5,784 nt of DNA, taken from IMG/VR virus record IMGVR_UViG_2671180770_000006; one strand, written 5' to 3'. The notes below the pieces were generated by a model, which saw only the letters and a list, made by a program, of their open reading frames with translations, searched no databases and had not been told where the DNA came from. This DNA comes from a virus. Lineage: Duplodnaviria > Heunggongvirae > Uroviricota > Caudoviricetes. A program made the translations under genes and the position numbers. Every line of letters begins with the position of its first letter. The stretch's first letter is position 1. Below are positions 379 to 5,013 of this stretch, one piece after another.

Positions 379-810
379 GTGCGCTGAGCCGCATTCACCG
401 CATCACAAAATTCACTTTAAAAAAGGCGGCAGAGCAGTTACGGAGTAAAACTGGTACCGCCAAACGTCACCAGAAAATGGATAACAGAGGGCGTTGCAGC
501 GTGGTTGTCTCTTAAGCGTATGGTCAACCTGACAACCCGGTGTACTCAACGGGGAAGGAATAACCCCGCCATACTTACCGCCGCGCCATTTCGCGGATTG
601 CCACAACCGGAAGCGCACGGTCGACGAAAATTTAACGACAGGCTATCTATGAACCAGCTACCTCGCCGAGCGCTTTCGCGTTATGGTCTGACTTTTCAGG
701 GAAATATCCTTTCAGTAAACTGTCAGTGCCGGATGCTCACCCGTGTCCGGCGCACGCACTCCACCTCACCCGTGGAGAACTCCTTAATCACCAACCCTCA
801 GGAGGGTGAA

Positions 811-2193: not shown

Positions 2194-2655
2194 CTACTGG
2201 TTACGTTTCTTTAGTGCCAGCATGTTCTCGAAGGCTTCCTCGTAGAGCTTGTTTAGTCCACGTAGCTGGTTAAGGAGTTTGGCTTTTTCTGACGCAGGTA
2301 GAATCTCGAAGAGGTTAAGTAACTCTGCCTGTTCTTCATTGACCAGCCTCCATCCTTTGCCTGAAAAGTTATCATCATAATTATCTGATGATCTTACATA
2401 ATTCATTAAGTCTTTAAGGTCTTCTCGAATGTCCTCTGGTTTTACCTTTAACAGAGCCGCAAATTTTAGCGCAGCGTCGGTATTTACCGGTATCTTGCCG
2501 TTCAGATACTGGCTAACGGTGCCTTGAGATTCGAATCCCAACAACTCAGCCGCCAGCTCTTGAGTCAGCTTCAGCTCTTTTTTTCTTGCATTCCATGCGG
2601 CTTTTAAATTCTTGCTCGCTTCTGGAGTTGCAATCACTTCGCGTGTTTTTTTCAT
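2194..2655 (-). CDS. racR: Prophage immunity repressor, CI/RacR-like, XRE-type HTH near the N-terminus, 153 aa; no recognisable LexA/S24 autocleavage domain
   Basis: HTH-like segment LTQELAAELLGFESQGTVSQYLNGK; divergent from a Cro-like gene across about 100 bp; terminator immediately downstream; C-terminal half lacks a peptidase-like motif. Symbol given by architecture match to the Rac RacR-YdaS-YdaT module, not by verified identity. Confidence 0.8.
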   Translation of the reverse strand: MKKTREVIATPEASKNLKAAWNARKKELKLTQELAAELLGFESQGTVSQYLNGKIPVNTDAALKFAALLKVKPEDIREDLKDLMNYVRSSDNYDDNFSGKGWRLVNEEQAELLNLFEILPASEKAKLLNQLRGLNKLYEEAFENMLALKKRNQ

Positions 2656-2661
2656 ACATAG

Positions 2662-2689
2662 AGTTTATTTGTTTTACCAATATTATCAA
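2662..2689 (-). promoter_or_regulatory. PRM-like promoter for the repressor (minus strand: TTGATA, 16-nt spacer, TAAACT), predicting a leaderless or near-leaderless repressor mRNA
   Basis: -10 TAAACT ends 6 nt before the repressor ATG and there is no SD upstream of that ATG, analogous to lambda cI transcribed from PRM. Hexamers read from the sequence; the start site is inferred. Confidence 0.4.
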
Positions 2690-2693
2690 AGAC

Positions 2694-2702
2694 AGTCTGA
2701 CT
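2694..2702. promoter_or_regulatory. Palindrome AGTCtGACT between the divergent -35 elements; candidate operator
   Basis: 9-bp dyad with a central T, positioned between the PRM-like and PR-like -35 hexamers. Confidence 0.3.
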
Positions 2703-2703
2703 A

Positions 2704-2732
2704 TTGATCTTTAAAATTAGCGGGGCTAATAT
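2704..2732 (+). promoter_or_regulatory. PR-like sigma70 early-right promoter (TTGATC, 17-nt spacer, TAATAT) with embedded inverted repeat ATTAGC-GGG-GCTAAT (2716-2730)
   Basis: -35 at 2704-2709 and -10 at 2727-2732. The 6-3-6 inverted repeat occupies the spacer and overlaps the -10, a typical operator position. About 30 nt upstream of the Cro-like ATG. Confidence 0.55.
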
Positions 2733-2762: not shown

Positions 2763-3038
2763 ATGAACTTAAGAGACTATTTAAAAGAGAAACATATCAC
2801 CCAGCTACAGTTTGGGAAGCTAACGGGTTTATCTCAGGTGCATGTAAGTCGAGTGCTGGGGGGCTATGAAAGATTCAGCCCTGAAAAAGCATTACGTGTT
2901 GCTGAAGTAACGAATTTCGAGGTTACACCTCATGAACTCCGGCCTGATATTTACCCGAATCCAACCGACGGCTTACCTGTTGGATTCAAGGCTAACACAC
3001 CAAATGCATCGGAGTTGATTCATGAAAATCAGGCATGA
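2763..3038 (+). CDS. ydaS: Cro-like small HTH regulator (YdaS family-like), 91 aa
   Basis: ATG at 2763 with GAAGG 6 nt upstream (the track's 2757 start is a TTG). HTH-like ITQLQFGKLTGLSQVHVSRVLGG and an ELRPD motif; divergent from the repressor. Symbol is by family resemblance. Confidence 0.75.
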   Translation: MNLRDYLKEKHITQLQFGKLTGLSQVHVSRVLGGYERFSPEKALRVAEVTNFEVTPHELRPDIYPNPTDGLPVGFKANTPNASELIHENQA

Positions 3039-3447
3039 GCACATCCGCATGGCGATGAATGCCTGGGCGCGTCCTGATGGCGAAAAAGTTCCAGCAGCTG
3101 GAATAACCCAGGCTTATTTTGAGTTGGGTATGACGTTTCCTGAACTGTATGACGACAGCCATCCGGAAGCCCTGGCTCGCAATACACAGAAAATTTTCCG
3201 CTGGGTAGAGAAAGACACCCCTGATGCAGTTGAAAAAATTCAGGCGTTGTTACCAGCGATCGAAAAAGCAATGCCGCCTCTGCTGGTGGCCCGAATGCGC
3301 AGCCACAGTTCAGCTTATTTTCGGGAGCTGGTGGAGACGCGGGAACGACTGGTGAGAGACGCTGATGATTTTGTCGCAGTGGCGATCGCTGGTTTCAACC
3401 AGATGAATCGTGGTGGCCCGGCGGGAAATATTGTGGTTGTGCATTGA
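3022..3447 (+). CDS. ydaT: YdaT-like protein (reported CII-type functional analogue in Rac/CP-933P-type prophages), 141 aa
   Basis: N-terminus MKIRHEHI and C-terminal ...VVVH match my recollection of YdaT-family proteins; GGAG 7 nt upstream; overlaps the Cro-like stop by 17 nt, consistent with coupling. Assignment is from memory, not a search. Confidence 0.7.
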   Translation: MKIRHEHIRMAMNAWARPDGEKVPAAGITQAYFELGMTFPELYDDSHPEALARNTQKIFRWVEKDTPDAVEKIQALLPAIEKAMPPLLVARMRSHSSAYFRELVETRERLVRDADDFVAVAIAGFNQMNRGGPAGNIVVVH

Positions 3448-3518
3448 CTGACAATATTCATACCGGATCGCTTCCGGCAATTCGTGAGTAAAAAGATTCG
3501 GTATCAGAAGAGGTGAGT

Positions 3519-4559
3519 ATGGCTAATGCCTGGCTCAGATTATGGCATGACATGCCAAATGATCCTAAGTGGCGAACAATTTCCAGGGTGTCAGGACAGC
3601 CAATTGCAACAGTGATGGCGGTGTATATCCACCTTCTGGTGAGCGCGTCACGAAATGTCACGACATGTCACGGCGTGTCACTACGTGGTCACATTGATGT
3701 CACGACGGAAGATTTAGCAAGTGCGCTTGATGTGACGGAAGAAGTAATTGATTCAATTTTACAGGCAATGCAGGGGCGGGTACTTGATGGAGATTTAATC
3801 ACCGGATGGGAAAAACGCCAGGTACTGAAAGAGGACAATGGCAACGTTTCACAAACCGCGAAATCCCCAGCAGAGCGCAAGAGAGCGCAGCGCGAGAGGG
3901 AAAAATTACGAAAACAGAATGAGGGGTGTCACGACGAGTCACGCATATGTCACGACATGTCACGACGAGTCACGACAGATAAAGATACAGATAAAGAATT
4001 AAACCCCACACATAACGCGCACGTGCGCGAGAGTGATCCGACCAGTGAGTCGAGTGGTACGCCGTTGCAGGCAGCAGAACCTGCATCCCTGGATGGACTG
4101 AGCGAACCCATCGGGAAATTTCCGATGGTCGATGGCTGGCATCCGTCGCCGGATTTTCGACGACGGGCTGCGTTGTGGGGGATGGCTTTGCCGGAGCCGG
4201 AATTTACACCTGCTGAACTTGCCGCTTTCCGGGACTACTGGGCAGCGGAGGGGAAAGTTTTCACGCAGGTTCAGTGGGAGCAGAAATTCGCCCGTCACGT
4301 AAATCACGTCAGGGCGCAGGTTAAGCCAGTCAGCAAGGGGGTAAACCATGCAGCAGCACCAGGTGGCACCGCATCACGGGCAGTTCAGGAAATTCGGGCA
4401 GCACGTGAGCAGTGGGAACGTGAAAACGGATTTATCAGCGACGGAAACGGTCTGGAAGCTGTGGGAACTCATGGGGGAGGTTTATTCGAACCGCTGGACC
4501 CAGAAGAACGGGGCCGCACCTTCGAAGCTCTGGATTGCACAGATTGGCGCGATGACTGA
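3519..4559 (+). CDS. Replication initiator (lambda O functional analogue): N-terminal domain, low-complexity charged linker and C-terminal domain; contains the putative origin
   Basis: Sits immediately upstream of a P-like gene; two arrays of GTCAC(GAC) direct repeats plus an AT-rich tract lie inside the ORF, the linker-embedded arrangement known for ori-lambda in gene O. ATG at 3519 with AGAGG 5 nt upstream (track start 3513 is a GTG). The last 212 nt overlap the P-like gene out of frame, so the true C-terminus is uncertain. Confidence 0.65.
   Translation: MANAWLRLWHDMPNDPKWRTISRVSGQPIATVMAVYIHLLVSASRNVTTCHGVSLRGHIDVTTEDLASALDVTEEVIDSILQAMQGRVLDGDLITGWEKRQVLKEDNGNVSQTAKSPAERKRAQREREKLRKQNEGCHDESRICHDMSRRVTTDKDTDKELNPTHNAHVRESDPTSESSGTPLQAAEPASLDGLSEPIGKFPMVDGWHPSPDFRRRAALWGMALPEPEFTPAELAAFRDYWAAEGKVFTQVQWEQKFARHVNHVRAQVKPVSKGVNHAAAPGGTASRAVQEIRAAREQWERENGFISDGNGLEAVGTHGGGLFEPLDPEERGRTFEALDCTDWRDD
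3647..3708 (+). repeat. Iteron-like array 1: six direct repeats of GTCAC(GAC) at 10-11 bp spacing (starts 3647, 3657, 3667, 3677, 3688, 3699)
   Basis: Counted directly. The helical-turn period places the repeats on one DNA face, and the phase drift makes the protein read CHD / SR / VTT in rotating frames. Confidence 0.7.
3928..4003 (+). repeat. Iteron-like array 2: five GTCACGAC-type repeats (starts 3928, 3938, 3949, 3959, 3969) followed by AT-rich GATAAAGATACAGATAAAGAATTAAA (3978-4003); candidate origin core and unwinding element
   Basis: Counted directly. The iterons-then-AT-rich layout parallels ori-lambda; the AT tract itself contains GATAAAGA twice. Confidence 0.65.
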
Positions 4560-5013
4560 GCAGCAAATCCGACAGGTCTGCCGCCAGTGCATGGACCGCT
4601 GCCGGGCGGGTGAAACATGGCCTCCGGACCTGGCTGAGTTTGTGGCACTGATTTCGGAAAGCGGAGCCAATCCATTCGGTCTGACGGTGGATGCTGTGAT
4701 GGAGGAGTACCGCCGCTGGCGCAATGAGTCCTGGCGATATGACGGAAGTGATAAGTACCCGTGGCCTCAGCCTGTGCTGTATCACATTTGCCTTGAGATG
4801 CGTTCAAAGGGGATTGAGCGCCAGATGACCGAAGGGGAATTAAAACGGCTTGCAGAACGGCAGCTGACGAAATGGGCAAAGCATGTTAGTAACGGCCTGA
4901 GCGTTCCGCCAGTCCGGCGACAACTGGCGGCACCCAAACGCCCGTCGGGGCCAACGCCAATTGAGTTGCTAAAACAGGAATATGAACGCCGGAAAGCGGC
5001 TGGGTTTGTTTGA
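4348..5013 (+). CDS. Lambda P-like replication protein (DnaB helicase loader), 221 aa
   Basis: Recalled lambda P motifs align: ...PSPGQFVAW... with PPDLAEFVAL, ESYPWK with DKYPWP, and ELRRKAADELVHMTARI with ELKRLAERQLTKWAKHV. AAGGGGG lies 6 nt upstream of the ATG at 4348. An alternative start at 4471 is possible. Confidence 0.8.
   Translation: MQQHQVAPHHGQFRKFGQHVSSGNVKTDLSATETVWKLWELMGEVYSNRWTQKNGAAPSKLWIAQIGAMTEQQIRQVCRQCMDRCRAGETWPPDLAEFVALISESGANPFGLTVDAVMEEYRRWRNESWRYDGSDKYPWPQPVLYHICLEMRSKGIERQMTEGELKRLAERQLTKWAKHVSNGLSVPPVRRQLAAPKRPSGPTPIELLKQEYERRKAAGFV

Follow-up and report, generated by a model that had tools for sequence, protein, structure and literature searches.

A putative replication origin built on two phased repeat arrays inside the initiator gene of a lambdoid Escherichia prophage

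The DNA analysed here (IMG/VR record IMGVR_UViG_2671180770_000006; the whole stretch of 5,784 nucleotides is called the window) comprises the region for immunity and replication in a lambdoid prophage of Escherichia that belongs to the Qin/Rac (DicA-DicF-DicB) type. The minus strand carries the 3' end of dicB, the gene for the small RNA (sRNA) DicF, ydfC, ydfB, a DUF1391 gene, and a gene for a cI/DicA-like repressor, and the plus strand carries Cro/YdaS-like and YdaT-like genes followed by the genes for an initiator ('phage replisome organizer') and a helicase loader resembling lambda P (Table 1). Two arrays of short GTCAC repeats, here called the upstream array and the linker array, lie within the initiator gene, and the linker array adjoins an AT-rich tract. 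Judged from its sequence, the segment from 3647 to 4010 is very probably the vegetative replication origin of the prophage, situated inside the gene of its own initiator. This reading is based on the non-random anatomy of the segment, the conservation of its synonymous sites, the co-variation of the two arrays, their linkage to the N-terminal domain of the initiator, the AT-rich tract, a mosaic joint, and a layout resembling that of oriL in Bacillus phage SPP1.

Table 1 Features of the window, with positions counted from its first nucleotide
Feature	Position	Strand	Details
DicF antisense sRNA gene	424-475	-	Rfam RF00039, score 70.5 bits (gathering score 48)
cI/DicA-like repressor gene	2194-2655	-	
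Promoter-like site 5' of the Cro/YdaS-like gene	2689-2717	+	Consensus scan, 9 of 12 matches
Cro/YdaS-like gene	2763-3038	+	
YdaT-like gene	3022-3447	+	
Initiator ('phage replisome organizer') gene	3519-4559	+	From the list of open reading frames; 346 amino acids; would contain the entire origin
N-terminal domain coding region	3519-3818	+	Amino acids 1-100; predicted winged-helix reader of the repeats
Upstream array	3647-3708	+	Six head-to-tail units: GTCACGAA, GTCACGAC, GTCACGGC, GTCACTAC, GTCACATT, GTCACGAC
Single inverted unit	3732-3736	-	GTGAC on the plus strand; 33 bp past the last upstream-array unit
Linker array	3928-3976	+	Five head-to-tail units: GTCACGAC four times and GTCACGCA
AT-rich, A/G-rich tract	3975-4010	.	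ACAGATAAAGAT twice, then AATTAAACCCCACACATAA
DnaT-like DNA-binding domain coding region	4119-4319	+	Amino acids 201-267; Pfam PF17948, E 2e-17
Lambda P-like helicase loader gene	4471-5013	+	Pfam, PHROG, PGAP, polymorphism by codon position; start probable
DUF1627 gene		+	After the P-like loader gene

The initial annotation of this DNA had described eleven GTCAC copies of the same orientation in two clusters with a period of 10-11 base pairs (bp), and both the number and the period are borne out. On the plus strand, the copies start at 3647, 3657, 3667, 3677, 3688, and 3699 in the upstream array (spacings of 10, 10, 10, 11, and 11 bp) and at 3928, 3938, 3949, 3959, and 3969 in the linker array (10, 11, 10, and 10 bp), leaving about 230 bp between the arrays. 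Only five other GTCAC copies occur in the window when both strands are counted, and arrays of period 10 are called by Tandem Repeats Finder at 3647-3692 and 3927-3977. Allowing at most one mismatch, GTCACGAC has 12 matches against 3.3 expected, a number reached in none of 200 shuffles. When the codons of the initiator gene were resampled synonymously 5000 times with the protein fixed, GTCAC occurred 1.67 times on average and eight times at most, compared with the 11 observed copies, and after codon-shuffling of the gene no 5-mer formed more than two phased pairs, compared with the nine observed. Chance and protein coding fail to explain the GTCAC repeats.

Because the GTCAC units occupy all three reading frames, they give a rotating CHD / SR / VT(T) pattern in the translation, which had been taken as the footprint that a constraint acting on the DNA leaves in the coding sequence. 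The comparison of homologues proposed along with that claim gave conservation of the repeats beyond what the protein requires. Phage records, a set of genomes with a single representative of each species (80 loci), and IMG/VR (80 close relatives) supplied the homologous loci, and synonymous sites were compared in 22 GTCAC-type genes from different genera with 62-91% amino acid and 63-89% nucleotide identity to the window. The alignment of these genes is perfect at the repeat cores, and drift has affected the spacers and the remaining gene. Third codon positions are conserved at 97.9% in the cores and at 57.3% outside the arrays, and where two genes share an amino acid, they use the same codon in 97-99% of pairs within the cores, as opposed to 44% outside, where synonymous sites are near saturation. 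A twelfth unit, overlooked by the initial annotation, is the single inverted one, which lies within the 'DVT' turn of a helix-turn-helix; 20 of 20 GTCAC-type homologues encode the Val of this unit by GTG, which makes up 24% of their other Val codons.

As had also been claimed, the linker array leads straight into an AT-rich run. The GC content is 35-37% at 3960-4019, with a strong excess of A, and Tandem Repeats Finder places the two copies of the 12-mer ACAGATAAAGAT at 3975-3997. In 69 of 70 loci, the 36 nucleotides that follow the linker array exceed the gene in AT content (65% vs 42%), and their coding strand is rich in purines (77% vs 56%); they usually consist of hexamer repeats such as GATAAA, GATACA, or GAGAGG. 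The codons of the tract are biased as well, with GAT used for 93% of Asp (54% elsewhere) and AAA for 86% of Lys (50% elsewhere). This tract is a candidate DNA unwinding element. It is also the mosaic joint between the N-terminal and C-terminal halves of the gene, as positions 3400-3997 match phages Evi, Tritos, and 689R5 at about 87%, while positions 3977-4600 match ydaU/ydaV of Rac-SA53 at 93% (both by megablast), and the two kinds of match overlap only at 3977-3997. Since the joint falls at the AT-rich tract and Rac-SA53 differs in both N-terminal domain and repeat, the DNA-binding domain and its sites seem to form one cassette, comparable to the classical O hybrids of lambdoid phages.

The initiator consists of an N-terminal domain predicted to bind DNA, a disordered linker, and a C-terminal DnaT-like domain. 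The last is presumed to act as an adaptor towards single-stranded DNA and the helicase loader, and the NCBIfam DnaT model also matches it at amino acids 192-278 (E 1.5e-27, under the equivalog cutoff). The protein belongs to the PHROG replication-initiation families phrog_1408 and phrog_3729, its full length gives weak matches to PHROG 'replisome organizer' families (E 3.6e-5 to 1.6e-3), and NCBI, where at least 818 homologues are listed, names its close relatives 'phage replisome organizer'. The N-terminal 160 amino acids match no Pfam family; a weak match to HTH_Crp_2 (E 0.03) was obtained for the N-terminal part, and a profile search of PDB sequences returned nothing relevant to this domain. 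In the AlphaFold model, helices span residues 2-11, 16-25, 29-48, 63-70, and 74-84, followed by a beta hairpin at 85-95 and a long helix at 117-133. The predicted local distance difference test score (pLDDT), averaged over blocks of ten residues, is 81-91 over residues 11-40 and 61-90 and lower elsewhere, falling below 50 in a loop at 48-55 and at 136-150 within a disordered tail (136-160). The top Foldseek matches of this model, none of them significant, are all winged-helix regulators, and the domain may tentatively be described as an orphan, winged-helix-like fold weakly resembling replisome organizers. The upstream array encodes amino acids 43-63, that is, the end of helix 3 and the low-confidence loop, and the linker array encodes amino acids 137-153, extending to 160 with the AT-rich tract, so that the second array and, as initially stated, the AT-rich run lie in the linker, in its predicted disordered tail. 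Both arrays are thus encoded at sites predicted to tolerate sequence change, where the protein could absorb an arbitrary sequence and selection on the DNA would set the peptide.

To describe the family, the best 5-mer phased at 10 or 11 bp was sought without bias, separately in the two gene regions, in 87 loci under a strict criterion. Of these loci, 45 carry both arrays, 26 have the linker array without the upstream one, and two the reverse, while none of 1740 codon-shuffled controls carried arrays. The linker array, present in 71 of the 87 loci, therefore appears to be the near-universal core, and the upstream array an accessory of part of the family. The layout is seen again in related prophages from across the Proteobacteria. 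At least five unit classes follow the clades, namely GTCAC(G), GTGACG, GTAACG, GCAACG, and CGAACGC, and although the arrays were called independently, both arrays of a gene carry the same unit in 44 of the 45 two-array loci (21.8 expected under permuted pairing); the lone exception comes from offset calls within one CGAACGCAA repeat. Both arrays hold their positions in relatives down to about 30-36% amino acid identity, with the units changing together, as in Ralstonia phage Hennie (36% identity), whose five plus four copies of GCAACG occupy equivalent relative positions. The genus Pseudomonas by itself has three of the unit classes, which argues against recognition by a conserved host factor. 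The only constant companion of the arrays is the N-terminal domain whose coding region holds them. Downstream partners vary, including P-like loaders, DnaB-type helicases, and others, and homologues of the YdaT-like, Cro-like, C-terminal, and P-like sequences of the window are detectable in just 3-4 of the 45 two-array loci; binding of the repeats by the neighbouring YdaT-like or Cro-like proteins was rejected on this ground. Plasmid records with the N-terminal domain comprise only large plasmids, chromosome-sized records (4.8-4.9 Mb), and phage-like circles of 50 kb.

Two enterobacterial loci (L054 and L061) lack ACG-type units and carry CTACGTAG / TACTACG-type linker repeats at about +320 to +380 of the gene, possibly a further specificity class. 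In addition, two loci from Gilvimarinus (Cellvibrionales; L020 and L024) encode initiators of this family with clear GTCAC arrays. As no P-like gene was detected within 1.5 kb of these arrays, they are probably prophages and not dopCE, the domesticated gene pair discussed below.

The upstream array is the more variable of the two. It is present in about half of the 87 loci and missing from whole clades, and most relatives have four units, while the lineage of this prophage has six, a state that arose by a gain of 21 bp (10 + 11 bp, seven codons). Its spacing from the linker array, about 229 bp, is conserved in the GTCAC clade. Locus L086 has expanded arrays of about eight and about six GTGAC units (at about +145 to +240 and +447 to +508), and in Pseudomonas locus L037 the upstream array (about +165 to +225) combines three direct with three inverted units. 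In prophages of Stenotrophomonas, Luteibacter, and Noviluteimonas (L066, L071, and L072), the upstream GTCAC array occupies another loop of the N-terminal domain, where an insertion of six amino acids between helices 2 and 3 (LSRNVTVGH) holds it at +83 to +110, as opposed to the usual +128 to +180. This placement in xanthomonads suggests that a second array was acquired independently, which in turn would point to a selective benefit of having one 200-300 bp upstream of the core. Whether that benefit is cooperative, through looping, or regulatory, the sequence fits both.

Among known systems, the closest layout seems to be that of the experimentally proven SPP1 oriL, where direct repeats bound by G38P and an AT-rich unwinding element lie within gene 38, and where a 356-bp fragment containing both is enough to support replication in vitro (PMC5737612, PMC6316719). 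In the sequence of gene 38, compared over 5936-6040 of locus L173, GAAACGACA-type repeats of about 11 bp (5936-5990) are followed immediately by an A-rich, AT-rich tract. As at 3928-4010 of the window, direct repeats and then an AT-rich tract thus occupy the linker-coding segment of an organizer gene, directly after the part encoding the N-terminal DNA-binding domain. The similarity does not extend to the proteins, as G38P and the window initiator share no significant pairwise similarity (BLASTP E 0.44), the C-terminal domain is Phg_2220_C (PF09524) in SPP1 and the DnaT-like PF17948 in the window, and G39P and G40P are the partners in place of a lambda P-like loader. Moreover, the hosts are Bacillus and a proteobacterium, respectively, and the second array within the region encoding the DNA-binding domain has no counterpart seen in gene 38.

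The initial annotation had compared the locus with ori-lambda, and this comparison stands for the iterons and AT-rich tract inside the initiator gene, while homology to lambda O does not hold and SPP1 oriL offers the closer layout. The iterons of lambda and Stx phages are 18-19 bp long, have internal dyad symmetry, and are bound by O dimers, whereas the units of the window are shorter, as had been pointed out, at 10-11 bp, direct, arranged head to tail, and split into two arrays. Ori-lambda has its iterons, four in lambda and six in Stx phages, and its AT-rich tract midway along the initiator gene (PMC7466680). The window shares this location between the regions encoding the N- and C-terminal domains, which in lambda bind the origin and interact with the loader, respectively, the AT-rich tract directly downstream of the iterons in the linker, the P-like loader gene that comes next, and the position of the module downstream of cro/cII-like genes in a rightward early operon (PMC7466680). 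In both, the DNA-binding domain and iterons are swapped as a cassette. Unlike lambda O, the window initiator has no Phage_rep_O or HTH_36 domain; Pfam matches to either were sought in the N-terminal part to E 10 and in eight family members, and homology to lambda O was rejected.

Rac-type YdaU (Rac-SA53) represents another variant, sharing with the window the 3' half from the AT-rich tract on (93% identical), the P-like gene, and a GATACAGAT-type AT-rich tract at the domain boundary. Its N-terminal domain is DUF1376-like and unrelated to that of the window, whose initiator has no Pfam match to a DUF1376-type N-terminal domain, and its gene has no GTCAC units. An inverted pair, GTGTTCAAACA / TGTTTGAACA, is found directly upstream of the AT-rich tract in Rac-SA53 ydaU (2436-2520 of locus L003) and may be the binding site of the DUF1376-type domain. 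The origins of iteron plasmids such as P1, F, R6K, RK2, and pPS10 likewise place phased direct initiator sites beside an AT-rich unwinding element; their initiators are winged-helix proteins, a second, separate iteron array is common, and the iterons measure 17-22 bp and lie mostly outside the rep gene. The window differs from them in its 10-11 bp units and in lacking a Rep_3/RepA-type domain and use as a small-plasmid replicon. Finally, DopC and DopE of Cellvibrionales are a domesticated lambda O/P-like pair, in which the initiator-like protein has a DnaT C-terminal motif and is paired with a P-like loader as in the window, while the N-terminal domain of DopC is of the O-like HTH_36 type and no iterons have been reported (PMC5509034); the window has a different N-terminal domain and prominent iterons. 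SPP1, lambda/Stx phages, and DopCE are the only similar systems found in the literature, and no publication on the origin of this initiator family was found, although the older literature on lactococcal and lambdoid origins is thinly covered and a prior description is possible. Taken together, the feature resembles a phage iteron origin of the replisome-organizer type, outside the lambda O family and with a logic like that of ori-lambda.

By analogy with these systems, a course of initiation may be proposed, comprising binding by the initiator, unwinding, delivery of the helicase, and a role for the upstream array. The core origin would consist of the linker array (five GTCACGAC-type units) and the adjoining AT-rich polypurine tract, with the winged-helix-like N-terminal domain binding as one monomer per unit. 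Given the mean period of 10.3-10.4 bp, the monomers would line up on one face of the helix and could form a nucleoprotein filament comparable to the O-some, the strain of which, possibly aided by rightward transcription, would open the AT-rich tract. The C-terminal DnaT-like domain and the P-like loader encoded downstream would then bring in the host DnaB. The upstream array and the inverted unit would be accessory sites for the same protein about 230 bp away, most likely looping to or cooperating with the core complex, or else modulating initiation.

Several observations count against reading the segment as an origin bound by the N-terminal domain. The assignment of a DNA-binding fold is weak, as TIGR01714, the N-terminal region of phage replisome organizers, matches at E 7e-4 and 19.8 bits against a cutoff of 49.8, PF09681 matches one of eight family members at E 0.015, below its cutoff, the mean pLDDT of the AlphaFold model is 67, and a Foldseek search of the N-terminal model against the PDB gave no significant match (best E 0.4). 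An alignment sorted by unit class yielded no readable specificity-determining residues, since the region of the recognition helix is too variable for a simple residue code. Furthermore, 14 of the 87 loci have no recognisable arrays under the strict criterion, no small plasmid was found to use the N-terminal domain as its replicon, no papers on binding or origin activity were found for any family member, and the p-value of the third-position comparison (Mann-Whitney p 4e-7) overstates independence, as the homologues share a phylogeny.

Accepting an origin still leaves the role of the second array to be weighed. The linker array and AT-rich tract might be the whole origin, with the upstream array and inverted unit exerting negative control, for example by titrating the initiator, by handcuffing of arrays or of copies, or as a roadblock through which the initiator-P operon is autoregulated. 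Second iteron arrays serve copy control in plasmids P1, F, and RK2, and a control element would agree with the contrast between a nearly constant linker array and an upstream array that is absent from whole clades and varies in number and position, from four or six units to eight in L086, with mixed orientation in L037 and another loop in xanthomonads. Yet it is not obvious why the origin of a lytic phage should need a limit on copy number, and the upstream array has the unit and orientation of the core and keeps its distance in the GTCAC clade, which fits a cooperative loop equally well; we consider such a control element possible but unlikely. A different view is that the repeats are bound not by the initiator but by another protein, for instance a host factor, a different phage regulator, a ParR-like partition protein, or a small terminase subunit, and serve regulation, segregation, or packaging. 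Direct repeats of 10-11 bp in two blocks also occur in parC of plasmid R1 and in some pac sites, and the weak fold assignment of the N-terminal domain leaves room for another binder. Nevertheless, this domain alone always accompanies the arrays, and the unit classes differ within one host genus. No partition or terminase genes are present in the window or in 9 kb of its annotated twin locus, including parM/parR or parA/parB genes of a ParR/parC-type centromere, and consensus DnaA boxes and sites for IHF are not enriched and do not occur inside the proposed origin. With an AT-rich tract as the constant neighbour of the repeats, as in proven origins, a non-initiator protein seems very improbable. 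Least of all would the repeats be devoid of function at the DNA level, as a by-product of slippage or of selection for a repeated peptide. Although close relatives differ in copy number and disorder is predicted for the encoded segments, the period is not divisible by three, units lie in all frames, cores are conserved at fourfold-degenerate sites across genera where spacers and the remaining gene have drifted, only 1.7 GTCAC copies are expected with the protein fixed, and both arrays switch unit together. The codon-level tests contradict this explanation, which is hardly conceivable.

If 3647-4010 is the origin, it would be that of a very common class of Escherichia prophages, for which PGAP annotates proteins only. 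The 1.2 kb around the arrays is 99.6% identical to a locus of E. coli 025542-1, whose initiator is labelled by PGAP as a DnaT-like ssDNA-binding domain-containing protein, and parts of this module are matched in 2592 of 5426 complete E. coli genomes. An origin inside the initiator gene is expected for a lambdoid prophage, and what would be new are the dual arrays across a family with switching unit specificity. A more far-reaching proposal, offered as a tentative one, is that these initiators form a large family of replisome organizers, in phages and prophages of Proteobacteria, with an undescribed origin design. Two arrays of 10-11 bp head-to-tail units would lie inside the coding sequence of the domain by which they are read, interchangeable specificities would number at least five (GTCAC, GTGAC, GTAAC, GCAAC, or CGAAC, then G or GC), and the independent placement of the upstream array in different loops would point to selection for a two-site looped complex of initiation or control. 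Should this be so, differing units would give co-resident prophages orthogonal origins. The clade-specific units and their matched N-terminal domains would then be candidate orthogonal initiator/origin pairs, which could be used to probe how a winged helix reads DNA and whether co-resident prophages cross-activate. The anatomy also suggests how origins might be located from sequence in hundreds of proteobacterial phages that are still uncharacterised, as the linker of a replisome-organizer gene should contain phased units of 10-11 bp and, after them, an A-rich polypurine tract. Likewise, the locus appears to be a natural case of dual coding, where selection on the DNA shapes a protein sequence in all three frames. 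If the upstream array were a control element instead, it would represent an unusual, plasmid-like iteron control in a phage.

The assignment of the downstream gene to the lambda P-like loaders is based on Pfam Phage_lambda_P (PF06992, E 2.5e-16), phrog_109 (P-like helicase loader), and the PGAP label 'replication protein P'. Its open reading frame is open from an ATG at 4348, overlapping the initiator frame by 212 nucleotides in another frame (4348-4559), and PGAP places the start at 4552. In a comparison of 50 relatives, the distribution of polymorphism over codon positions changes from the pattern of the initiator frame to that of the P frame near 4471 (ATG, MGEVYSNRW), which makes 4471 the probable start, and the final 29 or so codons of the initiator appear unconstrained. 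PHROG 15931 (482 positions) covers both the initiator and the P-like protein, showing that fused gene calls exist.

The promoter-like site ahead of the Cro/YdaS-like gene is at best a weak candidate for the rightward early promoter, from which the predicted transcript would cross the origin; promoter-like sites in this region are no more frequent than expected from shuffled sequence, and a scan for internal promoters and terminators gave nothing beyond shuffled expectation. On the minus strand, the DicF gene sits between the cut 3' end of dicB and ydfC/ydfB, and its presence assigns the prophage to the Qin/DicB group. At 2140-2170, downstream of the repressor gene, a GC-rich hairpin is flanked by an A-run and a T-run (aaaaaaaccgactaagacgtcggttttttt) and looks like a bidirectional intrinsic terminator that would part the repressor gene from the ydfA-dicB operon.

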